Positions 42,291 to 58,402 of a DNA stretch of 64,000 nucleotides are shown here, one piece after another (position 1 is the stretch's first letter; each line of letters opens with the position of its first letter). This DNA is from a virus. Position numbers and translations under genes: made by a program. The notes beneath the pieces are model-generated. The model was not told where the DNA came from and ran no database searches. It worked only from the letters and a program-made list of their open reading frames with translations. The stretch lies in UHGV virus genome UHGV-0041117. One strand, given 5' to 3'.

Positions 42291-42544
42291 AGCAAACTCC
42301 CGATGATGTACCCGATGAGGCCCCCGTACAGGAGCCCACGAACCGTATTGCAACAGATGCAGTCGTTTTGCTTGAAGGGGAACAACCACACCTTGTAGAA
42401 GAAATCATAGACCTTATTCGCGGGTTTTTCAATGTCCGAATCGTACAGCCAACCGTGGCAGAAATTCACGTTGTCGCAGAACCACGCCACGAACTTATAT
42501 GCCCACGTCCCCGGCTTGGGTTTCGGGGTATCCCACAATTCCAT
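42287..42544 (-). CDS. small protein with C-terminal hydrophobic anchor (85 aa)
   Basis: C-terminal GLLYGGLIGYIIGSLL; lower-GC segment. Confidence 0.45.
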   Translation of the reverse strand: MELWDTPKPKPGTWAYKFVAWFCDNVNFCHGWLYDSDIEKPANKVYDFFYKVWLFPFKQNDCICCNTVRGLLYGGLIGYIIGSLL

Positions 42545-44508
42545 TACGCTTCACCTCCTGTGACATCAGCAACGACACCAGCCCCAGTAGGTGACGCCGG
42601 CATGGGTGCGGGGTTCGGATTGTTCCCAGCACCAACAGGCATGTCCATGGCCCCAAGCACGGCATCCGGGACGCCCATCGAGCCGAGGAGCTTCTGCAGG
42701 CTCCACGAGAGCACGGGGGCTATGTTGATATTCTGACCCAGGGAGCTGGCAGCAGCCCCAACAACTTGCAGAATCTCCATCGCCGACTGCTTCTCCATCT
42801 CCTTCTGGAGGAGGCCTTCGGCGCCCTTGGTAATGATTTGGGAATCCCCCTTCACGTTCATATCCTTGGCGTACAACATATTCATGTTGTAGAGCAGGCT
42901 ACCCAAAGGCTGGAAAACCCCGTAGGCGATGTTGTCCGTCGCGGCGTGCAACGCCTTAGTGGCGTTCCCCTGCAGCATGGACATACCACGGAAAGTACGC
43001 ATCGCGCCGGACCCGACAGCTTCCCCGTGCAAGGCCGCAGGAATATTGGTCACACGGTCGGCGAGCTGCATGAACATCTCCATAAGCTGCGCGTACGCCG
43101 GAATGTTGGATGGGATATGTGTGAACCGGAATGCTGGGATGTTGGAGTTCCCCAAGTCGGAATCGGACAAGTACATGCCCCCGGGCACGAGCTGACCGAT
43201 TTCCCCTTCCCCCAGGTACGCTGAGATGCGGCGGTAATCGGCTTCGCAGATAGGAGCCGATGCATTGGCCGCATTGCGCAGAAGATACATGAGGCTGGCA
43301 AGGTAAGCGCGCTCGATGTCGCGAAGACGCTGCGCGATGCCATCCCCAGCGATACGGTCCCCGCCGGTCTTGTAGAAGCTCGCGGTGTAGACCGGGCGGG
43401 TCTGCATCTTCGGGTCGGAGAAGACCCTCACCTCGATGACGCGCCCAGCCACAAGGGAAATCTGGCAGTTGTAGAACTCCGACGCCGTGAGCCCCTTGAT
43501 GTCATATTTCTGCAGCTCACGACCAGACATGAGCCCGTAATGCGTGAGGACCTCAATAGGGCTCACATTGGACGACCACAGCGCCATATTGCGCTGGGCC
43601 GCGTCCGGGGACCTGGACAGCCAGCTCAGGTTGAAATCTGGGCTGGAGTCGGCATCTTTCAAGACATCCAAAATCGTCTTGGAAATGTATCCCGGCAGCA
43701 TGGCGGCATTCATCAGCTCTCGCCGTGTCCACAACGTCCGGGTGAAAATACACGTCCCACGCTGCGTATCCGGGCTGTCGGGGGAGTACACGAAGTCGAA
43801 CGGGCTGATAGCCCGAAACGTGGGGAAGACCTCCGTGCTGATACGCGGCTTGTTTCGTCCCCAGACGAGGCGCGGAGCCCGGGTGATGTATGGGCCAGCA
43901 AATACTGCGTAAGGGTACACCGGAAACCATTGGAGGAAATCGGTCAGGGCCCGCGTGAAACCACCTTCTGCACACTGGTCTTCCATCAGAAGCAGCATGG
44001 CATCGGCAGACTTCTTGGCCTTCTCCTGCTCACGCTCCATCATCACACGTTTCTGCTGGCGTATCGCTTCGATAAGGAGTGCCGGGTCGCCGCCGAAATT
44101 GGTCTGCTGGAGCTCACGCTTTACCGCCTGGAACACCTCGTCTTTGGCGACAGGCGAGATGTCCGGGCGGGGCGTAGGGATAATCGTCCAGGGGAGTGCT
44201 GCGTCACCACGGCTCGTAAGAGCGTCGTTAAGGTAGGAATTGGCGATGTCAGATTTCAACGCAGTGAGGTTGATGTAAACGTCGACGCCGAGCTCGTCTG
44301 CGCGTTTTTTGGCATCACACGACATGATGCCATTCTGCTGATTCCAGCAGTTCTCCAGCACATCACGCAGAGGGCGCCCATTCACCAACTCCGCAGACTG
44401 CCATGCCACGGCCCCATTGAACCGCTCCATGACAGCATCCGCCAGAGGGTCCTGCGCTTTGGCAGGGATGTCCTCGATTTCCAGCATCCATCTGATTTCA
44501 TCGCTCAT
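42544..44508 (-). CDS. portal protein candidate (654 aa)
   Basis: RBS AAGGGGA; size and position immediately downstream of terminase large subunit. Confidence 0.6.
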   Translation of the reverse strand: MSDEIRWMLEIEDIPAKAQDPLADAVMERFNGAVAWQSAELVNGRPLRDVLENCWNQQNGIMSCDAKKRADELGVDVYINLTALKSDIANSYLNDALTSRGDAALPWTIIPTPRPDISPVAKDEVFQAVKRELQQTNFGGDPALLIEAIRQQKRVMMEREQEKAKKSADAMLLLMEDQCAEGGFTRALTDFLQWFPVYPYAVFAGPYITRAPRLVWGRNKPRISTEVFPTFRAISPFDFVYSPDSPDTQRGTCIFTRTLWTRRELMNAAMLPGYISKTILDVLKDADSSPDFNLSWLSRSPDAAQRNMALWSSNVSPIEVLTHYGLMSGRELQKYDIKGLTASEFYNCQISLVAGRVIEVRVFSDPKMQTRPVYTASFYKTGGDRIAGDGIAQRLRDIERAYLASLMYLLRNAANASAPICEADYRRISAYLGEGEIGQLVPGGMYLSDSDLGNSNIPAFRFTHIPSNIPAYAQLMEMFMQLADRVTNIPAALHGEAVGSGAMRTFRGMSMLQGNATKALHAATDNIAYGVFQPLGSLLYNMNMLYAKDMNVKGDSQIITKGAEGLLQKEMEKQSAMEILQVVGAAASSLGQNINIAPVLSWSLQKLLGSMGVPDAVLGAMDMPVGAGNNPNPAPMPASPTGAGVVADVTGGEA

Positions 44509-44543
44509 GGTTTCCCCTTACCAAGTCCAAATATGTACGTCAA

Positions 44544-46052
44544 TCACACCAGGCGGGCCAGGGTACTACGTCGCTGCACCAAACGGTCTCGAACTTGATG
44601 GGCCGTCTGGTCCCCGTCTTGCTCATCGCCCCGCATAATCATCAGGGCCGCGTACTGGAGCGCGTCGTGGACATGGCTCGCATCGTTTTTTTCTGGCGAG
44701 GGTGTGTACACAGCCCCCATCGTACCGCTAGCACGCAGCTTTCGGTACCGGTACTCATGGATAAATCCTCGTATGAGCATCTGACATCTGGGGTCAATGA
44801 GCAGGCCACCGGTCCGCTGATTGAGCATGTGCTCCACAGTCTGGATACGAACCTTCGGGTTATTGGACAGCTCAGTCACAGCGTTGATGCCCACATCGGC
44901 GAAGCGCTCTTTGGGTGTCACCGCCTGCCAAGAGTCGCGCGTATTGCTCGGGTCAATGGCGGCGACGACAGGATTGGTACTGTACCGCTCCCGCAGCAGG
45001 GGGACCAGCATGCCGTAGAGGAAATTCTCGAACCCCTCGTTGTCAGCGTACAACTCATCCAAGACACACCACCGCCCCTGCAGATTCTGGAGCACCACAG
45101 CGGCAGGATGGATGCCAGACTGGTCCACCCCGATGACGACAGGATGGAATGGCCTGGGCTCCAACGGTGTCTCCGAGACGTGGTAGGACTGATTGAAATT
45201 GGAGTAGACCGGCTTGCCGTCGATGATGGGGACATCCAGCATGCAATACTGGTTATCCACGATGTCTGTCCGGCCGGTCTTCAACAGGGCGTCAATCTGG
45301 TTGCGGTAGTACCGCATCCCCTGCTGCTCCGGGGTGAAATCCTCCGGGTCTCCTTCCTCCTTGGCCCCGAGGTTGCGCAGGTTCTCTGCATCCGGGTTAA
45401 TCTCGTACGTCACCTGACCCATGGCGTCGACTCTCTTAAACGCCGCCGGCGGCTGCCGAAACACGGCCCAGTTCGGCTCCGGGTTCCGTATGTACTCATC
45501 CAGCCAAGAGCCGGGCTCAGGCTGGTTGAAGTCCATGATAGTGCCACCCCAGGAGATACCCCCAAGGTCTTGGGGCGGAAAACGCCCGATACGCCCGGTC
45601 ACAGCGTTGTACACCTCTGGAGTGCAACCCGTGGCTTCGTTCATCCATGCATAGGTCCAGTTGGCCGAGCGGAGCTTCGGGGCATCATCCGCTGTTTTCA
45701 AAGCCCACAGTTCCAGCTCCAGAGAGACCTTCGTGCCATCCGGCAGCGGGATGAGGTAATACCCCTTCACAGGAGAGCCTGAACTCGCGATAGTGCCACA
45801 CTCAGGCGGGAGGACTTCCAGCAAAGAACGCCGAGTCGTGGAGAGGAGTTCCGGGTATGAGGACCGCACCACGCCGACACGCACATATCGTACACCATCC
45901 GGGGCCGGGTTCTGGGCGCAGGCGTACGCCAACACGTCCACAGCGCAAGCGCATGATTTGCCTGAGCCGTAAGGGCCCAGAATCATTTTGAGATACTTGT
46001 CACAATTATGCAACTGCAGGCCCGTGGGGCTAGGCACGTAATTGAACATCAC
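44544..46052 (-). CDS. terL: terminase large subunit
   Basis: Walker A ILGPYGSGKS, Walker B-like YAWMNEA, C-terminal nuclease-like region; 502 aa. Confidence 0.85.
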   Translation of the reverse strand: MMFNYVPSPTGLQLHNCDKYLKMILGPYGSGKSCACAVDVLAYACAQNPAPDGVRYVRVGVVRSSYPELLSTTRRSLLEVLPPECGTIASSGSPVKGYYLIPLPDGTKVSLELELWALKTADDAPKLRSANWTYAWMNEATGCTPEVYNAVTGRIGRFPPQDLGGISWGGTIMDFNQPEPGSWLDEYIRNPEPNWAVFRQPPAAFKRVDAMGQVTYEINPDAENLRNLGAKEEGDPEDFTPEQQGMRYYRNQIDALLKTGRTDIVDNQYCMLDVPIIDGKPVYSNFNQSYHVSETPLEPRPFHPVVIGVDQSGIHPAAVVLQNLQGRWCVLDELYADNEGFENFLYGMLVPLLRERYSTNPVVAAIDPSNTRDSWQAVTPKERFADVGINAVTELSNNPKVRIQTVEHMLNQRTGGLLIDPRCQMLIRGFIHEYRYRKLRASGTMGAVYTPSPEKNDASHVHDALQYAALMIMRGDEQDGDQTAHQVRDRLVQRRSTLARLV

Positions 46053-46058
46053 GCCCCC

Positions 46059-46511
46059 CTAATTCGTTGGCAAACAGTGGGCTACCTTGGCCACGCCTTG
46101 CGGGAGCGGGAGCGGGACGGCCACATTGACTTGAGTGTTCACCTGCGTGGCCTCCTTAGTATCGAGCAGACCCGCAGATTTCATCATCAGCTCCAGGAGC
46201 TTGAGTGCGTCCTTGTTCTCCAAGAGCCCTTGGTGGGCATCCCGAAACATTTTCTCCAGGAGGGCCTGGGACAACGTCATAGCCCGGTACCTGGCCCCAG
46301 CCTTGCTGCCCTGCTCTTTGCACTCAGCCAAGCTCTGCTGGAACAGGAGCTGGAAATGGGGCACGAGCAGAATGGCCTTGAGCGATTCTGGGGTCAGCCC
46401 GTACTCTCGATAGATGGCCGACAAGTCGATGGGACTGTCGGGGGTCTGCATAATCGCCAGGTCGCGTGCCAACGACGGCCAACGGAACTGGGTACCAATG
46501 ATGTCATTCAT
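46059..46511 (-). CDS. terminase small subunit candidate (150 aa)
   Basis: Position immediately upstream of terL; no motif verified. Confidence 0.45.
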   Translation of the reverse strand: MNDIIGTQFRWPSLARDLAIMQTPDSPIDLSAIYREYGLTPESLKAILLVPHFQLLFQQSLAECKEQGSKAGARYRAMTLSQALLEKMFRDAHQGLLENKDALKLLELMMKSAGLLDTKEATQVNTQVNVAVPLPLPQGVAKVAHCLPTN

Positions 46512-46515
46512 GCTC

Positions 46516-46550
46516 GCCTCACATACGAAAAAGAGGAGGCCTGCGCCTCC
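46516..46550 (-). terminator. rho-independent terminator (minus strand)
   Basis: GAGGAGGC-CTGC-GCCTCCTC stem then TTTTTCG on minus strand. Confidence 0.55.
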
Positions 46551-46562
46551 TCTTTGGGGTCC

Positions 46563-46590
46563 GACATTGTGTCGAAAAAGCGCATCCGCG
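46563..46590 (-). terminator. second tandem hairpin terminator (minus strand)
   Basis: AAGCGC-GGAT-GCGCTT then TTTTTCG on minus strand. Confidence 0.4.
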
Positions 46591-46591
46591 C

Positions 46592-46834
46592 TTATTTAAC
46601 GTCGGCAGCCGGGGAGCTGTCAACCTGACTCGCGGCCACAATGGCCGTGAGCTGAGTAGCAAGCCGCTCCAACTGCACGAGACTGGGAAGCCTCTTCTGC
46701 ATGGCCAGCGCCATGGCCCAGGGCATAGCTTCTTGCATAGCGTCTTCCAGCAGACGCGCAGCCGTGGGATATGTCTCCATAAGATGGCCCGCATTCAGCC
46801 GAATCCGCTCGTAGACCTTGTTTTCAGAGGTCAT
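46592..46834 (-). CDS. hypothetical protein (80 aa)
   Basis: ORF. Confidence 0.5.
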   Translation of the reverse strand: MTSENKVYERIRLNAGHLMETYPTAARLLEDAMQEAMPWAMALAMQKRLPSLVQLERLATQLTAIVAASQVDSSPAADVK

Positions 46835-46837
46835 ACG

Positions 46838-47404
46838 CTACACCTTCGTGTCCGACCCGGACTGGCCCACGGGCTGCGGCATCGGCGCCGGCTTCTTTGA
46901 CTGGGCCTCAGCCGTATTCTGAGGCTCAGAAGCATGCGTCAGGGGTTCGAGCAAAGTACGGCTCCACTCCCTGTCGGTCGCCTGCTGGCGTTCAGCATCA
47001 GCGAGGATACCACCCAGAGCGCAGTTCAGGAAGTCCTGGGCGGACTGCCGGTTGGAGACAGCAGCAGGTTCCTTGAGGTAGTAAGCCATTTCCTGGAGGC
47101 GCAGGGAATGGACATCGGACGGTTCCGGCGGCCTGTAGTCATACAGACGGAAGCCTTTGAGCAGACGGGCCGGACGGATCTCATTGCCGTACATGGTAGC
47201 GGGAATTTCCACATCCACGACAGCCAGATAGAAGTGCTTGTCCTCACTCTGCCCCGGAAGTTTCACCTCGGAGCAGCCCACATTGAGAATACGCGCGCCA
47301 GTGAGGTCCGGCATCACGCTCATGGTATCCGCCGGGTCATATTGCAGATACCATCTGGAACCATTCCATTCGATAACTTGCGCAAACAGGGATTTGCTCG
47401 CCAT
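46838..47404 (-). CDS. hypothetical protein (188 aa)
   Basis: ORF. Confidence 0.55.
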   Translation of the reverse strand: MASKSLFAQVIEWNGSRWYLQYDPADTMSVMPDLTGARILNVGCSEVKLPGQSEDKHFYLAVVDVEIPATMYGNEIRPARLLKGFRLYDYRPPEPSDVHSLRLQEMAYYLKEPAAVSNRQSAQDFLNCALGGILADAERQQATDREWSRTLLEPLTHASEPQNTAEAQSKKPAPMPQPVGQSGSDTKV

Positions 47405-47428
47405 AAGTACATCTCTCCTTACCGATTG

Positions 47429-47986
47429 TTACAGACTCGCCCGAAGCATGGCAGCCAGCGTATGGACCATCTCACGATGTACGTCCGCAGCAGGCGCATG
47501 TTTTTTGAGCACGCCCACGAGTTCCTTGGATTCCATCTCGACGAGGCCGACCATATCCTTCCCTTCCAGGTAGGGCTTCCAAGTGTCCGGCGGATTCATG
47601 CTCACGGAGATGGCGGATTCCATCATCCCTTCCAGCTTCTCTTCGAACTTTCGGCTCGGGCGCATCAGGCCGGAAGCCGCATATCCCATGTGCGGATGCT
47701 GCGCTTCCATACGCTCCAGCTCGGCGAGCTCCTGAGAAAGCATGACCTTCCGCATATGGATGTCCTGGGGGTTGAACAGAGGCATACGCATCCCCCCGTA
47801 CCCGCCGTTATATGTCCGGTAGGCCGGGGATTCAAGGGGAGGCCAATCCCTGCTTTCCGGCATAGGGTAGTGTTCCTCGTGAGTTCCGTCAGTACCACCA
47901 CCGACGAAACCAATCATACGCCCCATAGGCTCAGTGTCACTCTCGGGGGGCGGCGTAGGTACGCCACGGAATCGAATAGTACCCAT
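47429..47986 (-). CDS. hypothetical protein (~185 aa)
   Basis: ATG MGTIRFRG internal to ORF 47429..48004. Confidence 0.5.
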   Translation of the reverse strand: MGTIRFRGVPTPPPESDTEPMGRMIGFVGGGTDGTHEEHYPMPESRDWPPLESPAYRTYNGGYGGMRMPLFNPQDIHMRKVMLSQELAELERMEAQHPHMGYAASGLMRPSRKFEEKLEGMMESAISVSMNPPDTWKPYLEGKDMVGLVEMESKELVGVLKKHAPAADVHREMVHTLAAMLRASL

Positions 47987-48057
47987 ATCACTTCTCCTTC
48001 GCATTTAAAAGGGCGGTGCGCTCGGAAAACGCACCGCCTCACCCATTTTGTTTCAGC

Positions 48058-48771
48058 TTAACGAGAAGCGGTACCACCCGAACTGGTGGTCGGGAGATGG
48101 GCCAGGATGGTCGTCAGCATGGACTGCATGTCGTTGCGGTTCTGCTGGGCCGTGCTGTTAGCCAGGTTGGTGTTGAAGTTCTGGGCTTCGAGCTGGGCGA
48201 TGCGGGCATCCTTAGCGCCCATTTCACGCAGCAGGCGTTCGCGGTCAATCTGGGCGATGAGTGCACGGGTGGCTTCGCCTTCCGCATGGATGGCGCTACG
48301 GGTCTCACAGCCCTGGCGTTCGATGTTGCGGTTGGTTTCGCAGCAGCAGTCGGAGATGAGCTGCTTGGTGGTGCAGCAGCAGTCCTTCTGGGCGGACACG
48401 ATATCGAACGTGTTGCGCATACCCTGCACTTCGTTGGCATGGGTAGCCGTGAGCTGGGCGATGGTGTTGTCTTTCTGCTGGAGCTGACCCTGGAGACCGG
48501 TGGTCAGAACGGCAGCTTCGGTACGGCTCTGGCCCTGGGCGAGCTGGGCGGCCACATTCTGGACAGACGAGATGGTACGACCGAAACCTTCGCAGAGCTG
48601 ACTGCCCAGATTGGCGACCTGCATGAGCTGGTCACGACCGATGGAATCCACGTCAGAACGCATGGTGGTCAGGGACTCCATCACATACTGGTTGCCGTTG
48701 GTGCCGCAGCAACCACCACCGCAGCAGTTGCCATTGTTCCAATTGCCACCACGACCCCAGGCGGAACCCAC
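48058..48771 (-). CDS. Gly/Cys-rich coiled-coil virion protein; reading frame continues upstream to an ATG at 48864 across an in-frame TGA (48808-48810)
   Basis: Track ORF starts GTG 48771; strong RBS AAGGAG plus ATG at 48864 in same frame, 18 codons then TGA; Gly-rich composition on both sides; CC/CCC cysteine clusters. Confidence 0.55.
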   Translation of the reverse strand: MGSAWGRGGNWNNGNCCGGGCCGTNGNQYVMESLTTMRSDVDSIGRDQLMQVANLGSQLCEGFGRTISSVQNVAAQLAQGQSRTEAAVLTTGLQGQLQQKDNTIAQLTATHANEVQGMRNTFDIVSAQKDCCCTTKQLISDCCCETNRNIERQGCETRSAIHAEGEATRALIAQIDRERLLREMGAKDARIAQLEAQNFNTNLANSTAQQNRNDMQSMLTTILAHLPTTSSGGTASR

Positions 48772-48946
48772 AGCACCACCGATGGCGCCACCGATGAGAG
48801 CGCCGCCTCAGTTGCCCATGCCGTTGTTGCCACCGATGTCGATAGTAGGCTGGAGACCTTCCATGAGAAAACTCCTTGTAAAATGTGACGATAACCCGGG
48901 AACAATACTCGGGCAGGTTTATGTAATCAGCGGGAAATCCGCTGAT

Positions 48947-49600
48947 TTACGCAGTAAAACGAACGAGGGCCGACACATAGGACTGATTCGTCATACCAGC
49001 GATAGCCAATTTCACAGCTTTACCTTTGAGTGCGCCAAGTGCCTGCGGAGAGTCATTCAGCGTGATGGGGTTGGCCCCGGATTCAGAACTCAGCGTAACC
49101 GTAATACCTCCGGTCCCAGAACCATCAGCCTCGATGTAGCTGAGAGTGACGTTGTTCCATTCACTTGCGAGGACAGTGTGAATGACCTCATCAGAAAATG
49201 CGAAATATAGCGGAAGGTTAGCAAAAGCGGAAGGCATCTGTGCGGCCAACCACTCCTGGTCTACCTGAATCACACCCTCTTCGGTAATGGTGATACCTTC
49301 CCCAGCCGTCAGCGACCCGCCGAGGGCTTCTTCAAGAGCCGTAAGGTCGATTTCCACCGCAATGGAATCACCCTGCAAAGGGGCCTCTGTTCCGGTATTG
49401 AACGTGAGGATACCCCCCGCGCTCTTGAGCAGAAACTTATCGGGGACCATGGGGTGTCCGCCAGCAGTCGAACCGTCATGAACGACCACGACCTGCTTGT
49501 CGGTGTCGACGGTGAGCTCACCGGGGAGGCCCTTGTATGTTTTGTGCTGGGCAGTCGTCCCCCTGAACTGCTGGATAGGACTGGAGTTGTTTCTCGCCAT
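48947..49600 (-). CDS. tail fibre-family protein (217 aa) with conserved fibre N-terminal domain
   Basis: N-terminal IQQFRGTTAQH..GELTVDTDKQVVVVHDGSTAGGHPM shared with gene 49717..51075. Confidence 0.65.
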   Translation of the reverse strand: MARNNSSPIQQFRGTTAQHKTYKGLPGELTVDTDKQVVVVHDGSTAGGHPMVPDKFLLKSAGGILTFNTGTEAPLQGDSIAVEIDLTALEEALGGSLTAGEGITITEEGVIQVDQEWLAAQMPSAFANLPLYFAFSDEVIHTVLASEWNNVTLSYIEADGSGTGGITVTLSSESGANPITLNDSPQALGALKGKAVKLAIAGMTNQSYVSALVRFTA

Positions 49601-49716
49601 ATGTGTATACCTACCTCTTTACATACTGCGTTAGGAGGGGACGTATAGAAAACTACCCTCTCGAACAAGAGGGTGCAGCCGTAGGACTTTCCTCGGCTGC
49701 ACCCATGGTGAAACGC

Positions 49717-51075
49717 TTAGGCGTCCATGGTGCCGTAGTCGGAATAGACCATCAGCTTGCCATTGTCGCACTGAATCTGGTTGCCGGCGGTTTCGGAAAT
49801 CATGGAACAGCCCAGAGAGCCATCCGGGTTGTCGACCATGCCGTTGACGATGTTCTTCACCGAGTCCGTAATGTCGGCTTCCGTGAGCAGGGCGCCCTTG
49901 TCAGTACCAGTCTTGATGAGGTTGCCGCCGTCGGCAGACACGACCTTCACAGACAGTTTGCCGTCGGCACCGGCCTTGATAGCGTTGTCGGTGTCGGAAG
50001 AAATCGTGTTGGTGAAGTCCACCACGATGTTGCCGCTTTCGTCGAACTTGATACCGGTGCCCAGCTTGGCAGAGATGGTATGCCCCGAAATGGTGATACC
50101 CTGACCGGCGGTGTACACATCCACGAGGTCGGTCACATCCACATAGGTGTCAGCCACGGAACCATCGGACAGGGCCCAGATAAAGTGCAGGTACACACCG
50201 GATTTCAGGCCCACCCCAGGCGTGAAGCTGACAGTGCCGCTGACCGTGGTACCGCTGACCGCGAACGGGACAGAAGCGGACGACGTGTCATCGAACGTCA
50301 CCGTGGCCGGGCTGGAGCCACCTTCCGCAGTCTTGTCGTCGCCGTTGAACACAGCACGCACAGCAGCGACCGAGGTACCGCCTTCGGCCAGCTCGGTGGA
50401 GTATTCGGCAGTACCGGCGGAACCCTTGGTGGTCGTCACCTGGACACCCACGGCATCAGACCAGGCGCCGTTCTGGTCGCGGAAAATCAGGGTCAGGTGG
50501 TAGTCGCCTTCGACAGTTTCACCACCGGCATCGGGCTTACCATCCGTCAGTTCCACACCCTTGAGCACGGAAGTGCTGGACGGGATGGTCACGTTGGCGA
50601 CTTCGGTGGAACCGTCATGGCCGATGAGTTTCAGCTTACCGGAGGGCTGGTCGTAGGTCATGCTGAGGTCAGCAGCAACCTTGCCCTCGGCGTCATGCAG
50701 AATCTTGTCGCCTGCGCGGATGATGAGGTTGGCGTCGGGAGCCTTGGCATACAGCTTATTGTCAGTACCCACGGACAGACCGTTGTTGGCGTCGGTGGAC
50801 ACCAGGTCGGTAGCCACCGTGGTCATGTCCAGGGTGAGCGCCACATCGCCAGCGAGGGTGCCCTCGGTGGAGCCGTTCACTTTCAGATGGGTGTCGCCAG
50901 TAACCTTGCGGTCTTCACGGGCCATAGGGATACCACCGGCGGTGGTACCGTCGTGGACGACCACAACCTTCTTATCGGTATCGACAGTCAGTTCGCCGAC
51001 TTTGCCGGTGTACGAGGCATGCTGCGCAGTCGTACCACGATACTGCTGGATAGCGTCGGGAGTTTTACGAGCCAT
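49717..51075 (-). CDS. tail fibre protein (452 aa)
   Basis: Same N-terminal fibre domain; beta-rich Gly/Thr/Ser repeats; central region paralogous to 51144..52682. Confidence 0.7.
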   Translation of the reverse strand: MARKTPDAIQQYRGTTAQHASYTGKVGELTVDTDKKVVVVHDGTTAGGIPMAREDRKVTGDTHLKVNGSTEGTLAGDVALTLDMTTVATDLVSTDANNGLSVGTDNKLYAKAPDANLIIRAGDKILHDAEGKVAADLSMTYDQPSGKLKLIGHDGSTEVANVTIPSSTSVLKGVELTDGKPDAGGETVEGDYHLTLIFRDQNGAWSDAVGVQVTTTKGSAGTAEYSTELAEGGTSVAAVRAVFNGDDKTAEGGSSPATVTFDDTSSASVPFAVSGTTVSGTVSFTPGVGLKSGVYLHFIWALSDGSVADTYVDVTDLVDVYTAGQGITISGHTISAKLGTGIKFDESGNIVVDFTNTISSDTDNAIKAGADGKLSVKVVSADGGNLIKTGTDKGALLTEADITDSVKNIVNGMVDNPDGSLGCSMISETAGNQIQCDNGKLMVYSDYGTMDA

Positions 51076-51143
51076 AAATCACTCCATAGTTTGAAGCCCG
51101 GGCCCTATGCCCAGGCCGTATCAATGTTACTCTGGTGGCCGCA

Positions 51144-52682
51144 CTAATTAGTAGCCGGCATATCCCCACGGTCCATGGGCGTGTAGGCGCCCTTGTCCGA
51201 GCCAGACACCAGAAGGTTGTCCTTATCCGCAGACACGACAACGACCTTGAGCTTCTTGTCCGAGCCAAGGCGAAGCACGTTATCACTGTCAGCGGAAAGC
51301 AGCTTGGAACAGTCAATCCCGATGGAACCGTCGGTGTTAATCACGATAGGGCTGTCTTCGCCCGTACCCAGGTCAAGAACAAGGTTGTTGTCCTTGAGAG
51401 TCAGACCAGAACCAGGAGAGACCCCAAGACCACTCACCGGGTCACATTTGATAGCTCCCTCGGGATGGAGCTTCACGGACACTTCCCGGCTGGCGCTGAT
51501 GTCGATACCACACCCGGCCCTGTAGATGTCGACAAGAGCCGACACATCCACATAGACATCCTGCACAGTACCGACAGCCAGCGCATACACGAAGACCAGA
51601 TAGGTTCCCGGAATGAGCCCGACGCCAGGCTCGAAAATAACTTCGAGCCGCGTAGCCTCCGGCGTCACGATAATACGGGTGCCGTCAGCAAACTGGAGTG
51701 CTGCGGTGCCGTCGATGAAAAACTGCTCCGCCGTCTGCCCATTGAAAATACCGCGAACCCGGACAGCACCCATGCCCGCAACAGATTCGATACTAGTCGA
51801 CACGGCTGCGCTTTTATGCGTCCGCACCGTGGCCGGGACAGGGTCGCCCCAGACGCCATCGGCCTGGGCGAACATGAGCGAAAAATGGTAGTCGCCCTCG
51901 ATGTCCTCACCGCTCTCACTGGGCATACCATCCACGAGGTAAACACCCTTGAGCGAAGAGCTTGCTCCGGGGACGCGCACCGTGGAAATCACAGTCTGAC
52001 CATCATGGCCCAGGATGTCGAGCTTGCCGGTGTCAGGCGAATACGCCAGCGAGAGCTCGGAGGAAATGCGCCCGTCCTTGTCTTCGTACAGGATAGCATC
52101 GCCCCGATTCAGGATGTCATCCATGGACAGGTACACACCCTTGTCGGAGCCGGGATGTACCAGGTTCCCCTCATCTTGAGAGATGACAGGGAGATTGTCC
52201 TGGATGTTTTCCTTGGTCAGAATGATTTTTCTGTCGACAGGGTCGATGGTCAACAGATTGGTGTGTCCATTGGACAGCATGTCATTAGGCGTGAGCTTCG
52301 CCCCGCCATCACTTCCGACCGTGACCAGGTTATCAGTATCCGCAGAAACCACGGTCTGGTCGACGAACAAGCCACCATCACTGCCAACCTGCAGTTCATT
52401 CCCGCTGTCCCTGGAAACAAGGCCCTCGGCAGTAGCCGACATGTCCGGGACGTACAACATTCCGCCGCGCACCCTCAAAGCATTACCAGCTTCGGGAGAG
52501 ACAAAATCACCAGCGCGGACAGTCAGGCCCTCGGAGTCAGATTTCAGAAGGTTAGGTGCCCCGGAAGAATCGGCGCCGCCCAAAGGAAGGGCTGCTACGT
52601 CAACGAACTGCCCGTCAGGGAGCTCGGAAAACTGCTTATTCGCCGGGTCGCGAACAATGGGGCGCTTCATAGGTTTCGCCAT
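51144..52682 (-). CDS. tail fibre / receptor-binding protein paralog (512 aa) lacking the conserved N-terminal domain
   Basis: RBS AAAGGAGA; LSLAYSPDTGKLDILGHDGQTV...GEDIEGDYHFSLMF aligns with LSMTYDQPSGKLKLIGHDGSTE...GETVEGDYHLTLIF of neighbour. Confidence 0.7.
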   Translation of the reverse strand: MAKPMKRPIVRDPANKQFSELPDGQFVDVAALPLGGADSSGAPNLLKSDSEGLTVRAGDFVSPEAGNALRVRGGMLYVPDMSATAEGLVSRDSGNELQVGSDGGLFVDQTVVSADTDNLVTVGSDGGAKLTPNDMLSNGHTNLLTIDPVDRKIILTKENIQDNLPVISQDEGNLVHPGSDKGVYLSMDDILNRGDAILYEDKDGRISSELSLAYSPDTGKLDILGHDGQTVISTVRVPGASSSLKGVYLVDGMPSESGEDIEGDYHFSLMFAQADGVWGDPVPATVRTHKSAAVSTSIESVAGMGAVRVRGIFNGQTAEQFFIDGTAALQFADGTRIIVTPEATRLEVIFEPGVGLIPGTYLVFVYALAVGTVQDVYVDVSALVDIYRAGCGIDISASREVSVKLHPEGAIKCDPVSGLGVSPGSGLTLKDNNLVLDLGTGEDSPIVINTDGSIGIDCSKLLSADSDNVLRLGSDKKLKVVVVSADKDNLLVSGSDKGAYTPMDRGDMPATN

Positions 52683-53193
52683 TGGTGTCTCCTTTACGCC
52701 CGCAACAGGCCATGCACCGGGCGCAGTCGTTCTGGAACGGGCACTGCTGTTTATGCTGCTCGCGTTGTGCGGGCGTCATCTTTTTACGCAGCTCGTTAAT
52801 ATCGTTACCGTCCATCATGTCGATGAATTTATACCCAGACTTCCACCGTATAAGTGCGTCTACAGCTTTCATGCCCCCAGCGGAAAGAAAAATCGTCAAC
52901 CCGAGGTCTGTCTCAGGAGACCGCGTTAGACCAAAAAACGGGAGGCATAATACTACGCCTACGGCCACGATAGCCATAAATGCGCTGGAAAACAGGATAT
53001 TGAAAAAAATGCTGCAAAAATCCCGGTGCAGGTAGCTGCGCTTCACGCCATGCCAACCCTGATACATAGCAATGACGAAAGCACCTGCGATGAGCGGCCA
53101 CAACTCGACAAGCAGATTCAAATAGGTACTACTGCGCCCCGTGATGGTGTCAGGAGAAACGGGAGGAATACTCATAAATTGTGGACCGGACAT
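52636..53193 (-). CDS. holin-like membrane protein (2-3 TM)
   Basis: Downstream of endolysin; hydrophobic segments LLVELWPLIAGAFVIAMYQGW and FCSIFFNILFSSAFMAIVAVGVVLCLPFFGL; start ambiguous (53193 or 53229); lower GC. Confidence 0.5.
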   Translation of the reverse strand: MSGPQFMSIPPVSPDTITGRSSTYLNLLVELWPLIAGAFVIAMYQGWHGVKRSYLHRDFCSIFFNILFSSAFMAIVAVGVVLCLPFFGLTRSPETDLGLTIFLSAGGMKAVDALIRWKSGYKFIDMMDGNDINELRKKMTPAQREQHKQQCPFQNDCARCMACCGRKGDTNGETYEAPHCSRPGE

Positions 53194-53200
53194 AGTTTGT

Positions 53201-53689
53201 TTACCACGACATGGCCATGACTTCGTCATAGCTGGAACGACGGACCAGACCGCCTACACGCTTGAACTTCACCGCGCGCTCATCTTCGCGCCCGCGCACG
53301 ATGGCCACGTGAATCCATCCCCCAGGGAGGTTCTCTGCGATGAGTTCGGTGAAAGGCAGATTTTCAGCGATAAAAGCAAAGATGTCCCGCAGCGATACAT
53401 CCGCCGACACCGGCTCGATGTCAGCGGCCGCGCCAGAGCAGTGATGGGAGGTTTTGGAAGAGCCGGGAATGGCACGATTCAGCGCGGCACTACGATACCC
53501 AGAAGTCACCCGGATAGGACCAAAATGGTCTCGCACAGGCTGCAAGACAGTCCTCGCCAGGTACTCCATATTATCCCAAACACACTGGTCATCAGGGATG
53601 TTTTGGATACCCTCACGCACCGCAGTGTCCGAATGCAGGAGCTCTTCGTAAGTGAAGTTCGGGGCCCCAGGAATAGGTCCATGTTCCAT
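53201..53689 (-). CDS. endolysin, peptidase M15 (L-alanyl-D-glutamate peptidase / VanY-like)
   Basis: RBS AGGAGG then ATG 53689 (MEHGPIPG); Zn-binding motif SKTSHHCSGAAADIEP (SxHxxGxAxD). Confidence 0.75.
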   Translation of the reverse strand: MEHGPIPGAPNFTYEELLHSDTAVREGIQNIPDDQCVWDNMEYLARTVLQPVRDHFGPIRVTSGYRSAALNRAIPGSSKTSHHCSGAAADIEPVSADVSLRDIFAFIAENLPFTELIAENLPGGWIHVAIVRGREDERAVKFKRVGGLVRRSSYDEVMAMSW

Positions 53690-53957
53690 GGCGGGAAACC
53701 TCCTAAAAAAAGCGGGCGACACGTACCTTGTAGTATCACTACTAGAGGTCCGTGCTCGCCCGCTCTGATGTATTACTACAACCGGGGTCCTTCCGTGTCA
53801 ATATCCATCAGGATGCTTGAGGCGCTCCTTGAGCTGTTCCACATCCTCGATAGTCACAGAGTCCCTCTGCCAGGTAGAAACGATGGACTGCACCGCAGGG
53901 AGCCCGTACATGGCTACGAGCTCCAGAATCTGCAGCACCAGTTTGATGTCAATGGCG

Positions 53958-54359
53958 TTACTCATGGCTAACCTCCTTCACATCCACGCCAAGGTCAATG
54001 GCGGCCTTGAGCAGTTCCTGCAAATCCCCCGCCATCTTATCGACGAGAGCCTTGAGATTTTCACGCTCAGTAGCCCCCGGAGACGAGAGACCCTCAGACG
54101 CGCGCATGTACGTCAGAAGACCGCTGACAGCGACCTGATACGCGTCGTAATATACCAGAGCGGCGTCCTTGAGCTTCGCCCAGTCATCATCCTGGAGTTT
54201 GCCCTGAGAGTGCATGTCACTGGCAGCAGTCATCACCGTGTCGTAGGTGATGGCACTGGTCTCCAGCGTTTTGTATGCCGTGAGCGCGATTTCATCCTGG
54301 GCCGCGCAGCCCACCAGACTGGCCGTGAGCGCCACAACGACGAAGAAATAACGGAACAT
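53958..54359 (-). CDS. lipoprotein (signal peptide plus lipobox LVGC)
   Basis: RBS AAGGAGG; MFRYFFVVVALTASLVGC; 133 aa. Confidence 0.6.
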   Translation of the reverse strand: MFRYFFVVVALTASLVGCAAQDEIALTAYKTLETSAITYDTVMTAASDMHSQGKLQDDDWAKLKDAALVYYDAYQVAVSGLLTYMRASEGLSSPGATERENLKALVDKMAGDLQELLKAAIDLGVDVKEVSHE

Positions 54360-54373
54360 ATACGAACCTCCTT

Positions 54374-54778
54374 TTACACTTTACCGCGTGTGATGACCAG
54401 CGGGCGGCCCTTAATCCACCCCTTGTCGCTGAAAGCCGTGAGATGCACCTTAGTCCCATCATCAGTAACCAGGTCATAATGGTACGGCGCATTGCCAGGG
54501 CTGGAAGCATAATACGCCGTATACTGCTTTCCCTTGTATGTCACACGCATACCGTGACGACAGTCTTCTTCGGTATGGTGCGCGTGGAAGTCGTAATCAT
54601 TCTGTCGCCACTCCTGCCCAGCAGCAAGGACAGGCGTAGTCACAGTACCCAAATCGACGAAATATTTAGGAGTGCTGCCGTTACAATCATTTTTGGCGAG
54701 TTCGATACGCATGGAAAGAGCCGCCGGTTCGGGCGTCATATCCCCATAATCACTCGCGACATAAGCAAAATTTTTCAT
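54374..54778 (-). CDS. hypothetical protein (~134 aa)
   Basis: RBS GGAGTAG then ATG (MKNFAYV); lower-GC region. Confidence 0.5.
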   Translation of the reverse strand: MKNFAYVASDYGDMTPEPAALSMRIELAKNDCNGSTPKYFVDLGTVTTPVLAAGQEWRQNDYDFHAHHTEEDCRHGMRVTYKGKQYTAYYASSPGNAPYHYDLVTDDGTKVHLTAFSDKGWIKGRPLVITRGKV

Positions 54779-54817
54779 AGGTATTCTACTCCACATACGA
54801 TAAAGAACAGACGAAAT

Positions 54818-54845
54818 TTGCACTTGCCTAAAACGATATTATAAG
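54818..54845 (+). promoter_or_regulatory. sigma70-like promoter for low-GC forward cassette
   Basis: TTGCAC-16 bp-TATAAG in AT-rich divergent intergenic region. Confidence 0.4.
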
Positions 54846-54888
54846 GGAAACTACCGAATGTCCATAACGGTGAACAAGGAGTGTAAAT

Positions 54889-56280
54889 ATGGATAACCTC
54901 GTTATGCAAGGGTATAAAAGCGGACTCAAAATCGTCCCCACTATCCCTCGCTACGATAACTCCGGTACAGAAATCACCGACGCCAATTATTGGCCGGTGC
55001 CTATTGATAGTGTATTCAGAACTAATTACGGGTTCAACGTCTACACTGGGAATGGTAAACTCGTAACTACGACCGATACGACCAAACGCTTCATTGTTAC
55101 CGATTACGGCGGATTCACCCCCAAGAACCCGCAAGAATCCTACAGCGCGCAGGAACTCTACAACCTCGTACTCGACGCCAGAGGTCTCACCCACGGGAAA
55201 AACTACGCCTTGTCTATCCTGGACAGCACGACAGGGAAATCGGGGCGTGTTATTCTTACCGCATCCGACAATACCGCACGCCTAACGTATGCGCTCACTC
55301 TGCAACTCGAAGACGCCGACGGTAATCTTTTGTCGAACAAAGCTGTGGCTGTGAACAAATGCGCCTGGCATGTACTTCCTGACGGAACCAATACGGGGAC
55401 ATTCTCCCTCGAACCCGACATCGTCGTTCCAGGTATGACCATCCTCGACCCCGGGAACTTGCCCGCACAAATCTACCTGCGATACAGCCTCTATGTCGCC
55501 CCGTTCATGGGGCACATTTTCGGCGGCGCCACAGGAGACGAAAACACCAACCGTATCGAACTCACTAGCGATGGTTGGAACGTCAATACAAACAAAACAG
55601 TCACACTCAACTTTGGCCCCGGCATTCTCAATTTTGATTTCTGGTGTTTCCCTGGAGACCCCGACATCCTCTCCAAAGCCAATGCTAAACGGTACAGAGT
55701 CCAGATAGCTTCCGAATGGACAGTTGATGTAACCCTCCACAGACATTCTAACATCCAAAACAACATCGACAGTATTACTGTTACATCGTCTAAACCCTGG
55801 GTCTTTGAACTCTCCAAATCTTCTCTTGAAGAATGTGACAGGGAACCCAAACCGGTCGAAGACTTCACACTCAACACCTTGACCATACATGGTACTTTCG
55901 GTTCCGCAGGTTCCGGTTGGCTCGATGAAGGAAGTATCGTTGATATATTCTCTGGTACCAACACACACTTCCCCATCTCCGGCAAAGTATCTTCTGGTGA
56001 TGTAAAAGGTCAGAGTTACCCTGCCAGCGTCGGAGGCGGAGACCATACTTCCTACACATATGATATGGCCCGGGTCACAGTCAATGGTAAGGTATTTGAG
56101 TTCCCGCTTTCCAGATACAATACCTGGGTGTTCGATAACTATATCACCCCTCAGGAACTCCCCGGTCTTGCCATAGGTATCTGTATCAGCAATTCCCCCT
56201 CTATGGGGTTCATCATATACTTCTTCGTCGGAAGTTCTTCCAATGTCGAAGAATGGCTCGAATACTCCAGAAATAGGTAA
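54889..56280 (+). CDS. tail fibre / receptor-binding-like protein (463 aa) in low-GC cassette
   Basis: RBS AAGGAG; ~47% GC vs ~63% background; beta-rich Thr/Asn/Gly composition. Confidence 0.6.
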   Translation: MDNLVMQGYKSGLKIVPTIPRYDNSGTEITDANYWPVPIDSVFRTNYGFNVYTGNGKLVTTTDTTKRFIVTDYGGFTPKNPQESYSAQELYNLVLDARGLTHGKNYALSILDSTTGKSGRVILTASDNTARLTYALTLQLEDADGNLLSNKAVAVNKCAWHVLPDGTNTGTFSLEPDIVVPGMTILDPGNLPAQIYLRYSLYVAPFMGHIFGGATGDENTNRIELTSDGWNVNTNKTVTLNFGPGILNFDFWCFPGDPDILSKANAKRYRVQIASEWTVDVTLHRHSNIQNNIDSITVTSSKPWVFELSKSSLEECDREPKPVEDFTLNTLTIHGTFGSAGSGWLDEGSIVDIFSGTNTHFPISGKVSSGDVKGQSYPASVGGGDHTSYTYDMARVTVNGKVFEFPLSRYNTWVFDNYITPQELPGLAIGICISNSPSMGFIIYFFVGSSSNVEEWLEYSRNR

Positions 56281-56303
56281 CAAATAAACAAAAGGATTCT
56301 ACA

Positions 56304-56798
56304 ATGCCTATAGCACTCGCCGGTAAAGTCACGTTTTTCTCTGGTGAACTTGGCGGCAGCGATGGCCGTCGGCCCATCGACGCTAAAACCAAAACCCCCA
56401 ACGAAGACTACGTCCTCTGTGACGGTATCGAAACCAACGGCATCGCTATCCCCGACCTTCGCGGACTGATGATTGTCTGCACCTCTGATGACCACCCGAT
56501 GGGCGAGACCGGTGGGTCTGATACGGCCACTTTCACCATGGAAGGTACTGTCGGAGACTGTACCCTCACCGTGGCGCAGATGCCGAGCCATACGCATGGT
56601 TATCGCAAGGTGACAGCATGGTATGGCTGGAACGGCACCAATGATGGCGATGACTGCAAACCGCCGAGCGACGGACAGCCCACTGATGCCACCGGTGGCA
56701 GCCAGCCGCATACCCACCCCATCGAAGGCACCGTCTCTGTGGAACGCTCACTTCCTCCGTACTACGCCCTGGCAGCAGTCATGTACATCGGCGACTAA
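56304..56798 (+). CDS. phage tail-collar domain protein (MdpB-like)
   Basis: TLTVAQMPSHTHGY ... GGSQPHTHP ... LPPYYALAAVMYIG matches tail-collar (Collar) domain signature. Confidence 0.7.
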   Translation: MPIALAGKVTFFSGELGGSDGRRPIDAKTKTPNEDYVLCDGIETNGIAIPDLRGLMIVCTSDDHPMGETGGSDTATFTMEGTVGDCTLTVAQMPSHTHGYRKVTAWYGWNGTNDGDDCKPPSDGQPTDATGGSQPHTHPIEGTVSVERSLPPYYALAAVMYIGD

Positions 56799-56799
56799 A

Positions 56800-56834
56800 A
56801 CAAAAAGCCCCCGCGTGTGCGGGGGCTTTTCTTA
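56800..56834. terminator. bidirectional rho-independent terminator
   Basis: AAAAAGCCCCCGCG-TGTG-CGGGGGCTTTTCTT. Confidence 0.75.
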
Positions 56835-56856
56835 CATCATTACTGAACAGCAGCGC

Positions 56857-57042
56857 TTAAGCGTCCATCTCGAAGTGGTCGCAGACAGAGAATGCCTTAG
56901 TTCGGAAACCGAACTTTCCGCAGGTGAGTTTTTCTCCGTATTTTCCTACGCGACGATAATGCTTACAGGTATTGCAGGCTTCAATCCTGGCCTGCTTCTT
57001 CCACCCGGCAACTTTCTTGGTCATCTTCTTTTCTTCGGGCAT
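56857..57042 (-). CDS. small Cys-containing protein (61 aa, possible Zn ribbon)
   Basis: RBS AAAGGAGA; CNTC...C...C. Confidence 0.5.
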   Translation of the reverse strand: MPEEKKMTKKVAGWKKQARIEACNTCKHYRRVGKYGEKLTCGKFGFRTKAFSVCDHFEMDA

Positions 57043-57057
57043 AGTCGTCTCCTTTGT

Positions 57058-57504
57058 TCACAGCATGGCGCCTACGAGGCGCTGTATCACGTAATGGGTC
57101 TGGCGGTCGAAGAGCTCTTTGAGTTTTTCCTCAGACAACCCCTTCCTGCTGCCCAGGGCCAAGGTCTCCATATCCATGAACAGCAGATGCAAGACCTCGT
57201 GGAGAGCCAGGGCCTCCATCCCCGTCTCTGCTACGAACTTAGGTACGGTAGTAGAACAATGGACCAGAACCGAAGTCCCCATTTCTTGCCAGCACACACT
57301 GGCCGCACTGTCGTCCCCGTGCCCACACTGGATGAAAACCAGCTCCAGATGGCGAAGGCCCAGCTTGTCGCACCACAGCCGAAAATGTCTCGTGAAGTCG
57401 GAGTACATCTCGGCAGTGACGGGGACATCTTCATTGATAACATCAAGCGCATCTTCCGGCCCCTCATACCGGCCGAAATCACGATACCAACCACGACTAC
57501 TCAT
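57058..57504 (-). CDS. putative Zn metallopeptidase (HExxH motif)
   Basis: RBS AGAGGAG; ALALHEVLHLLFMDME; 148 aa; ImmA/IrrE- or SprT-like by motif only. Confidence 0.5.
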   Translation of the reverse strand: MSSRGWYRDFGRYEGPEDALDVINEDVPVTAEMYSDFTRHFRLWCDKLGLRHLELVFIQCGHGDDSAASVCWQEMGTSVLVHCSTTVPKFVAETGMEALALHEVLHLLFMDMETLALGSRKGLSEEKLKELFDRQTHYVIQRLVGAML

Positions 57505-57811
57505 GGCCGCGCTCCTCTTTCCAGGCCCATTCCTTGTATCGCGTAAGATATTCAGAAAGCGCCAGCAGCGAAACGTACGTCACAACAGCCAGTACGCCGA
57601 ACCAAACGGCGAACACGACATCCGCCCAGAATGTCTCACCAGGAAAGCAAGACACGGCCCGGTAAGCGGCATGTACCGCACCGGCAAGGCAGGCCAAAAA
57701 CATGACGACGTACAAGCACAACACTCTGATGCGCCCTTTCTCGTTCCCGAAGACGAACTCGAGCACTGTGTCCAACGCGCCGTCGAGCGCATCCTTGAGC
57801 TTCCCCCACAT
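57497..57811 (-). CDS. small membrane protein (2 TM, 104 aa)
   Basis: RBS GGGAGG; hydrophobic LCLYVVMFLACLAGAV and VFAVWFGVLAVVTYVSLLAL. Confidence 0.55.
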   Translation of the reverse strand: MWGKLKDALDGALDTVLEFVFGNEKGRIRVLCLYVVMFLACLAGAVHAAYRAVSCFPGETFWADVVFAVWFGVLAVVTYVSLLALSEYLTRYKEWAWKEERGHE

Positions 57812-57814
57812 ACC

Positions 57815-58402
57815 CTATTCCTCCCTCGGTGAAGCCGAAGGACCGCAAGCCTCAGCCTGCCAGGCTTCGTAAACCCTGCGCTGCTCAGACGTGAGGTCAG
57901 CCACGTCGAGTTTTTTGACGTATCGGTAAGCCGCCAGAGAGAAACCGACGATGGTCCCCGAACCGGTGAAGTCTCTCCTGGCCCCGCGTTCGTAGATGAT
58001 ATGAAACGGGTATATGTCGTCACTATGGGAGAAATACTGCGCAATACCAAATCTCCCGCCATTCCAACCTGCTTCACCAGGAAGGAAGTCAGAGCAGAGC
58101 ACCGGAGTCCCGACAACGAACCACGGCTCACGGTCACTGACCCACCCTTCCACCTCAGCAGCCGAGAACGTCGGCGCAAGGGCGACGGTGCCAACGAGCT
58201 CGGCAGTGAGTTCCGTGTACGGGACGATTTCCTTGAACACCTCCCTGCTCCCGACCAGCAAGTAGCCCACAGAGCCATCAGGCAGCGTTATAGTCCTGGA
58301 GTAGAACCCGGGCTCCCAAAAGTCCAAATTACCGTTACGAGCCAGGACTCGGTCGAACGTATCATACTTCCAATTCGCGTAGATGCTTACCTTCTTATCC
58401 AC
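57815..58402 (-). CDS. hypothetical protein (~195 aa)
   Basis: GTG start after GGAG, overlapping stop of upstream gene; alternative ATG at 58441. Confidence 0.5.
   Translation of the reverse strand: MDKKVSIYANWKYDTFDRVLARNGNLDFWEPGFYSRTITLPDGSVGYLLVGSREVFKEIVPYTELTAELVGTVALAPTFSAAEVEGWVSDREPWFVVGTPVLCSDFLPGEAGWNGGRFGIAQYFSHSDDIYPFHIIYERGARRDFTGSGTIVGFSLAAYRYVKKLDVADLTSEQRRVYEAWQAEACGPSASPREE

Follow-up and report, generated by a model that had tools for sequence, protein, structure and literature searches.

An in-frame TGA interrupts a gene of a gut phage early in its reading frame, and we conclude, with a probability of about 0.8, that it is a genuine nonsense mutation of a single base, TGG (Trp-19) to TGA, in a late accessory gene that is conserved but has no known function. 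The window, by which we mean the whole stretch of 64,000 nucleotides that was analysed, is essentially a complete phage genome (~64 kb), and the phage is one of Desulfovibrionaceae, with Mailhella-like hosts. Judged from its sequence, the allele is best described as a null or a strong hypomorph, a natural knockout; low-level Trp readthrough or reinitiation could provide partial function.

A translation read through the stop has 362 homologues, nearly all of 260–280 aa, which extend over both of its parts; they are single ORFs of ~270 aa and cover 96–100% of the translated query, and one 90% cluster of the family has 207 members. With more than 360 homologues matching the two parts as one protein, the interrupted frame is no chance ORF, and the proposal of an earlier note on this DNA that a single gene is interrupted by a stop is borne out. 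By the note's own criterion, orthologues beginning downstream of the stop would have refuted it; the homologues instead share a conserved N-terminal extension. In alignments of 35 and 95 sequences this extension is again conserved, with Trp in the column that the stop occupies (...GMGN-W-GGALIGG...), and residues M1, G3, L4 and G17 are each at least 90% conserved in the 35-sequence alignment. Codon 19 is TGG in all seven of the nearest relatives first examined (L003–L009), of which four are close relatives with about 90–97% amino-acid identity to the window and three are further metagenome contigs. It is also TGG in L038, which shares the exact N-terminal sequence of the window, and in all other intact relatives inspected, so that one G to A transition sets the window apart. 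A recent nonsense mutation yielding a pseudogene-like allele was among the options listed in the earlier note, and it is the one with which the TGG of the orthologues agrees.

The rest of the frame is well preserved. The query with Trp restored aligns to the window as a single HSP with 99.6% identity by local tblastn, and compared with six close relatives the window has, the stop aside, 6 synonymous and 4 non-synonymous private changes in its nucleotides; the non-synonymous ones alter 3 residues, all conservatively. Because the private changes are few and conservative and the frame is otherwise without defect, the sequence suggests a recent lesion or residual function, and not long decay.

The same allele is present in other deposited records. 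Over 4.7 kb, TGA included, an ENA contig of 66,824 nt (L048) shows 100% identity to the window, although it may be the same assembly, and a truncated product of 237 aa (P0121) is recorded from three contigs of NCBI and ENA sources; the TGA allele is therefore reproducible in deposited data. An exact-pattern scan of viral contigs gave no match to the window's pattern, and the same kind of scan of metagenome contigs returned TGG alleles only; the remaining stop alleles were recovered by a degenerate pattern and protein look-ups.

The interrupted gene and its product

The gene lies on the minus strand, and the AAGGAG, the ATG at 48864, the 18 codons, the TGA at 48808-48810 and the open frame beyond it are all present where they had been described (Table 1). 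The 18 sense codons before the stop encode MEGLQPTIDIGGNNGMGN, and the frame after the TGA (GGALIGGAIGGAVGSAW...) runs for 249 further open codons to a TAA at 48060-48058. Two relatives of different haplotypes (L009 and L054) have ACG in place of the start ATG. Only two homopolymers of at least 4 nt are present in the gene, both GGGG, at codons 19 and 36. An alternative-frame ORF embedded in the gene (48440-48114) has no signal peptide and looks like an artefact of GC-rich sequence.

Table 1. Coordinates of the interrupted gene and its flanking features.
Feature	Position	Strand	Basis or remark
Shine-Dalgarno AAGGAG	48872..48877	-	7-nt spacer to start codon; kept in close relatives
Full-length gene start ATG	48862..48864	-	Aligned with M1 of homologues
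Codons 2-18 (EGLQPTIDIGGNNGMGN), conserved N-terminal extension	48811..48861	-	Alignment, 35 sequences
Premature TGA, mutated Trp-19 codon	48808..48810	-	Ancestral TGG, one G to A transition
Remainder of frame, 249 codons and TAA	48058..48807	-	Without further lesion
Ancestral GGGG run (TGG GGC), cluster of independent lesions	48806..48809	-	Homopolymer count, codon inspection
Codons 19-36, W-GGALIGGAIGGAVGSA-W, Trp-flanked glycine-zipper-like segment	48757..48810	-	Translation and alignment
In-frame GTG, codon 32, possible reinitiation start	48769..48771	-	Begins 237-aa ORF emitted by gene callers
Predicted single long alpha-helix, about residues 69-262, presumed coiled-coil rod	48079..48660	-	AlphaFold2 on orthologue P0001
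Two CCC clusters, codons 162-164 and 173-175, 11 residues apart, within helix	48340..48381	-	Translation
Intrinsic terminator-like hairpin, 12-bp stem, T tail	48012..48038	-	20 nt past the gene's stop codon
Three downstream genes, unknown function, 191/188/80 aa	46592..48004	-	Syntenic with gene in relatives

The genome has a GC content of 57–64% and encodes a family-A DNA polymerase, an SNF2 helicase, a DUF927 primase-like protein and a large LPD38 protein, together with a dUTPase and an exonuclease. An M15 endolysin (53722-53201) is followed by a membrane protein (53229-52636). Two paralogous tail proteins contain Mtd_N domains and a third, larger paralogue (52682-51144) has no Pfam match, and the genes for the large terminase (46052-44544) and portal (44508-42544) are downstream of the tail genes. 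On one side the interrupted gene is flanked by the last tail gene, and on the other by three small genes of unknown function, after which come the terminase genes. Because it closes its transcription unit, with the strong terminator-like hairpin 20 nt downstream, a stop here carries no polar cost. No close phage was found by megablast; the relatives are contigs clustering at 64–67 kb and also include contigs of Candidatus Mailhella (Desulfovibrionaceae) MAGs. A crude scan of the window for other split genes gave many spurious long frames arising from GC-rich sequence.

The Mtd_N tail genes, together with a reverse transcriptase encoded two genes upstream in one relative (L044), raised the idea of a DGR. 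Involvement of a DGR was rejected, as no TR/VR-like repeat was found in 46000-58000 and no RT domain among the scanned ORFs of the window.

Three parts are predicted in the intact product: an N-terminus that is disordered, is rich in Gly, Asn and Cys and includes the Trp-flanked Gly-zipper-like segment; Cys clusters; and a helix of ~190 residues. The earlier note had pointed out a composition rich in Gly before and after the stop, CC/CCC clusters and a long helix, all of which are real, and the 268 residues include 34 Gly, 22 Asn, 24 Gln and 12 Cys, with C162–C164 at least 90% conserved in the 35-sequence alignment. A Gly/Asn/Cys linker (CC-GGG-CC) follows the Gly-zipper-like segment, and residues 19–36 have a mean Kyte-Doolittle hydropathy of 1.04, which is moderate and under the usual threshold for a transmembrane helix. 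In an AlphaFold2 model of the orthologue P0001 (95 sequences), residues 70–263 form one uninterrupted helix with pLDDT of 70–91, and residues 1–73 have pLDDT below 50.

The only family match is to phrog_9288, whose function is unknown (E = 5.2e-13, 50.2 bits, residues 12–170). Two Gly-zipper families score below their gathering cut-offs, PF05433 (Rick_17kDa_Anti) with 12.8 bits against 24.2 and PF13488 (Gly-zipper_Omp) with 10.6 bits against 25, and Pfam yields only such sub-threshold Gly-zipper matches and coiled-coil noise. There is no match in NCBIfam or PADLOC, none in a profile search of the PDB, and no significant match by Foldseek to viral models; annotated phage genomes give only weak partial matches, to unannotated or hypothetical genes. 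With low confidence, we infer that the protein is most likely an oligomeric coiled-coil rod, with its Gly-zipper end anchored in, or interacting with, the membrane or the virion; it may also be the last product of a tail-fibre transcription unit, a suggestion of similarly low confidence. The N-terminal anchor, coiled coil and Cys residues also brought a spanin to mind. This candidate was rejected, as three tail genes lie between the gene and the endolysin/membrane-protein pair and no lipoprotein partner was seen.

Lesions of the gene in related phages

The Trp-restored protein was compared with all fetched loci by local tblastn, followed by inspection at the codon level, and at least 19 independent lesions of the gene were identified. 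Among the 27 loci retrieved regardless of gene integrity, the window included, 10 have broken copies, and in this 27-locus set the frames of TerL, portal, tail and neighbouring genes appear unbroken and free of stops. Some of the knockouts are seen in two or more samples.

Four independent lesions fall at codon 19 (in the window, L010, L026 and L049/L050). L010, which has ~96% amino-acid identity and a different N-terminal haplotype, has TAG at this codon and also a 3′ deletion. The codon is TGA in L026 (67% identity) and TGG in its sister L012, and L026 has in addition a stop at the conserved Arg-114 and an internal deletion. L049/L050, from two samples and of the L010 haplotype, have one additional G in the TGG-GGC run of codon 19.

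The other lesions are diverse. In L016 and L017, CAG to TAG changes introduce stops at Gln-147 and Gln-247 respectively, each in a background otherwise identical to the intact L013–L015. Small insertions and deletions include two +2 frameshifts in L003, an additional G in the second GGGG run, at Trp-36 (G4 to G5), in L051, and 1-nt indels at Trp-42 in L052 and L053; in a more distant subfamily, −1 G and +1 G changes occur in the analogous TGGGG run (L044/L045, in several contigs, and L047). The gene has a frameshift in L027 and a deletion plus a frameshift in L028, and its N-terminus is lost in L046. Three deletions with different breakpoints (L008, L010 and L038) remove the 3′ part of the gene and the next one to three genes, and in-frame deletions between CTGCTGC repeats, which lie at the two CCC clusters, are present in L004/L005 (33 nt) and in P0010.

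The lesions are not evenly placed along the gene. Stops can be reached in it by 30 transition routes, at 27 sites, and by 63 routes of any kind; given the event in the window, at least two of the remaining five nonsense events would land on codon 19 with a probability of 0.04 if only transitions are counted and of 0.009 for all routes. Substitutions to stop at codon 19 make up 3 of the 6 nonsense events, and the two GGGG runs hold five lesions, four of which are at the codon-19 run. Of the small lesions, 12/16 are in the first 61 codons, a figure that is inflated because L044–L047 and L049–L053 were chosen for their N-terminally truncated products. The clustering may reflect a hotspot, or early knockouts may be favoured, and since it exceeds uniform chance at codon 19, simple neutral decay is not the full explanation.

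From the pattern of losses alone, the gene appears to be dispensable or conditionally counter-selected, and inactivation that is recurrent, diverse and specific to this gene suggests a product that is dispensable and possibly costly under some conditions. A more elaborate reading, which we regard as doubtful, is that the Trp-19 codon and its G-run form a natural off-switch hotspot at which a conserved coiled-coil accessory protein, harmful under some conditions, is repeatedly silenced in phage populations; the TGA of the window would then have been selected for escape and would not reflect neutral decay. Selection would recur, for example where the protein is sensed by host defence or by the receptor environment, and the routes to silencing may include substitutions, slippage by ±1 G, loss of the start codon and deletion of the whole 4-gene block.

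The gene thus represents a widespread and uncharacterised protein family of gut phages, conserved over deep divergence, yet lost independently in roughly a third of sampled genomes. Such a pattern of loss would mark a conditional cost, for instance if the protein triggers host immunity or is a fibre or membrane factor that the phage can do without. With respect to recoding the gene is ordinary, and its residual interest is in the uncharacterised family and the unusual rate of natural loss.

Decoding of the premature stop and alternative readings

If the TGA is a nonsense mutation, ribosomes would start at the ATG behind the strong RBS and stop at the UGA after 18 codons. At most a small fraction of them would misread the UGA with tRNA-Trp, restoring the ancestral residue, and others might reinitiate at the GTG at 48771, giving a truncated form.

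In 34 confident genes of the window there are 199 TGG codons and no internal TGA, six of the genes are terminated by TGA, and ARAGORN found no tRNA gene in the window, suppressors included; the phage therefore uses the standard code. An Rfam scan of 46000-51000 for a SECIS-like element gave only noise at E values up to 10, and no stimulatory RNA structure was found in the 76 nt around and after the stop (z = −0.60 relative to shuffles). Selenocysteine, code 4 and programmed readthrough are excluded. The TAG and the frameshift at the same site in relatives are incompatible with any UGA-specific decoding, and programmed readthrough of the Q-beta A1 type is ruled out because the stop is not conserved among relatives. 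Two options of the earlier note, recoding or programmed readthrough on the one hand and a separate peptide of 18 aa on the other, find no support, as the stop is unconserved and is replaced by TAG at the same codon in a relative; its rejection of selenocysteine holds, with no SECIS-like fold and with Trp rather than Cys in the orthologues.

It is scarcely credible that the UGA is decoded as selenocysteine, or as Trp or Gly under genetic code 4/25, even though the protein is rich in Cys and Gly and Desulfovibrionaceae have selenoproteins. Recoded gut phages have in-frame TGA codons at Trp positions in late genes, and in alternative-code gut phages in-frame stops occur in 26–71% of genes, suppressor tRNAs are frequent and a low-GC origin has been proposed (bioRxiv 10.1101/2021.08.26.457843). 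Here an internal TGA is present in only one gene of 35, six genes end in TGA, and the GC content, at 0.57–0.60, is high, not low; there is no Rfam match or suppressor tRNA, the orthologues have Trp and not Cys or Sec, and L010 has TAG at the same codon. A simpler possibility is a sequencing or assembly error, the true codon being TGG and the gene intact. This would be in keeping with a single-base change in a G-rich stretch, with the TGG of every near relative and with the flawless remainder of the ORF, but we consider it improbable: the TGA is also present in L048 (ENA), the truncated product is recorded from three contigs (NCBI and ENA), real knockouts of this gene, assembled independently, are common, and consensus substitutions are uncommon in short-read assemblies.

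Two further alternatives accept the stop and differ in what it does. The stop might be leaky and retained as useful, with reading by tRNA-Trp at a low rate supplying a small dose of wild-type protein, either as attenuation or in the manner of the Q-beta A1 protein, for which tRNA-Trp misreads a UGA about 1 time in 15 (PMC8067240). Misreading of this kind is established and would here put back precisely the ancestral Trp, the Trp-19 codon has been hit by stops more than once, and the downstream ORF of the window is still clean. However, the stop is not conserved, one of its recurrences is a TAG and the same run has also acquired a +1 frameshift, L010 and L026 carry further destructive lesions downstream, and no stimulatory RNA structure is present. 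Reading of TAG by tRNA-Trp in the same way is not expected, and we think a retained leaky stop improbable too, if only slightly more so than an assembly error. Reinitiation at the in-frame GTG at 48771, or at a later start, would yield a functional N-terminally truncated protein, such that the product is changed rather than abolished. The GTG is 13 codons past the stop and preceded by a GGTGGT stretch, and gene callers emit the 237-aa ORF from it, but the SD-like match is weak, the product would be deprived of the conserved N-terminus and most of the Gly-zipper segment, both of which are conserved in the family, and other alleles destroy the gene outright by frameshifts or deletions. We regard this outcome as very improbable.

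A nonsense mutation remains our preferred reading, and we would annotate the region as a single gene that carries a premature stop and is a disrupted homologue of a protein of ~269 aa. Annotation as a selenoprotein, as a case of recoding or as a gene for a peptide of 18 aa is unwarranted.

Comparison with known systems

Residues 10–54 of the product resemble the motifs of glycine-zipper domains (PF05433/PF13488), but the zipper scores are below threshold and the long Cys-bearing helix is without counterpart in those domains. Like the gut phages of code 4/15, this gut phage has a late gene with an in-frame TGA at a Trp position of the homologues, and it departs from them in that this is a single case in a high-GC genome with TGA as a terminator and no suppressor tRNA. 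The likeness to Q-beta A1 is a UGA in a phage gene of the virion-gene region whose misreading would insert Trp. In Q-beta, however, the coat gene naturally ends at the UGA, which is conserved, and the phage makes use of both products, whereas the UGA here replaces a conserved internal Trp 18 codons in and is absent from relatives, with TAG or a frameshift elsewhere.

In the laboratory, phage escape from abortive infection by ToxIN proceeds by nonsense and indel mutants of asiA and by multi-kb deletions in non-essential phage genes (PMC5449768). The alleles described here are similar in that nonsense mutations, small indels and kilobase deletions affect one non-essential gene or block and the rest is intact, but they come from natural metagenomic genomes, and the analogy is offered as a hypothesis only and not as evidence. 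There is also some resemblance to homopolymer contingency loci, in that a gain or loss of one G in a G-run near the 5′ end switches the frame off. Changes in run length are G4 to G5 in L049/L050 (codon 19) and L051 (codon 36) and G3 or G5 in L044/L047, which are few events from a sample partly chosen for truncated products. Classical contingency tracts are about 7 nt or longer, whereas the tract here is 4 nt (GGGG) and half of the events in the run are substitutions and not slippage.

The remaining comparison is with an ordinary nonsense allele or nascent pseudogene. Such alleles, like this one, arise in one step (TGG to a stop) in an otherwise intact and conserved ORF, at a codon that is a sense codon in relatives, and many other loss-of-function alleles accompany them. 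The difference is one of frequency and position: knockouts of this gene are frequent (10/27 unselected loci) and cluster at one codon and its G-run, which is more clustered loss than is usual for a gene in an otherwise intact phage genome.

Conserved order and joint loss of four genes

The Gly/Cys-rich gene and the three genes downstream of it, encoding 191-aa, 188-aa and 80-aa proteins, keep their order even in phages in which the Gly/Cys-rich protein is only about 55–60% identical. Through three independent deletions with different breakpoints, the related loci L008, L010 and L038 have lost the 191-aa and 188-aa genes, along with the 3' portion of the Gly/Cys-rich gene and part of the 80-aa gene; we therefore conclude that the four genes act as one dispensable block.

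The Gly/Cys-rich gene is also altered at individual positions. Its ATG start is replaced by ACG in two relatives (L009 and L054) with different N-terminal haplotypes, a second point lesion that recurs in this gene. L004/L005 carry in-frame deletions of 18 and 33 nt between direct repeats of CTGCTGC, formed by Cys codons, and the homologue P0010 has a larger one; the repeats appear to be prone to slippage. A Pro/Ala/Arg-rich ORF of 108 aa is embedded within the gene in another frame and has no signal peptide; it looks like a GC-rich artefact, and P0093, a frameshifted relative encoded by L003, runs into its frame.

Locations of features in the window and, where named, in related phages
Feature	Location	Strand	Remark
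Four-gene block	46592-48864	-	Gly/Cys-rich, 191-, 188- and 80-aa genes
Embedded 108-aa ORF	48114-48440	-	
CTGCTGC repeat regions	48340-48381 and 48712-48730	-	deletion sites in L004/L005 and P0010
ACG start lesion	L009 11920	-	homologous to window 48862-48864
ACG start lesion	L054 gene start		homologous to window 48862-48864
Three consecutive paralogous tail-protein genes	48947-52682	-	
197-aa protein gene	53229-52636	-	hydrophobic segments, Cys-rich tail
M15 peptidase endolysin gene	53722-53201	-	

Mosaicism and probable completeness of the genomes

The window genome is mosaic. Its terminase and portal proteins (42544-46052) are 99–100% identical to their L009 and L010 counterparts, and its terminase gene shares only about 76% nucleotide identity with those of L003, L004 and L008; for its tail genes and its Gly/Cys-rich gene, identity to the same three relatives is 88–96%. 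Contigs of close relatives are tightly grouped at about 63.7–66.8 kb, and this clustering suggests that they are complete, separately assembled phage genomes and not decaying prophages integrated in a host chromosome. The ORFs scanned did not reveal an integrase.

Probable lysis genes, tail genes and a possible retroelement in a relative

The endolysin gene overlaps the start of the 197-aa protein gene by 29 nt, and the latter overlaps the first tail gene. The two (52636-53722) are likely to constitute a lysis pair; no spanin candidate was recognised.

Two of the three paralogous tail proteins have Major-tropism-determinant N-terminal domains (PF18454); the third, of 512 aa, has no Pfam match and cross-matches the other two in tblastn. 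No TR/VR-like repeats of a diversity-generating retroelement were found in 46000-58000, and a reverse transcriptase domain is absent from all window ORFs scanned. In a more distant relative, L044, a reverse transcriptase (RVT_1; L044 1-692) is encoded two small genes upstream of the Gly/Cys-rich gene, which suggests that a diversity-generating retroelement lies beside the tail genes in that phage.
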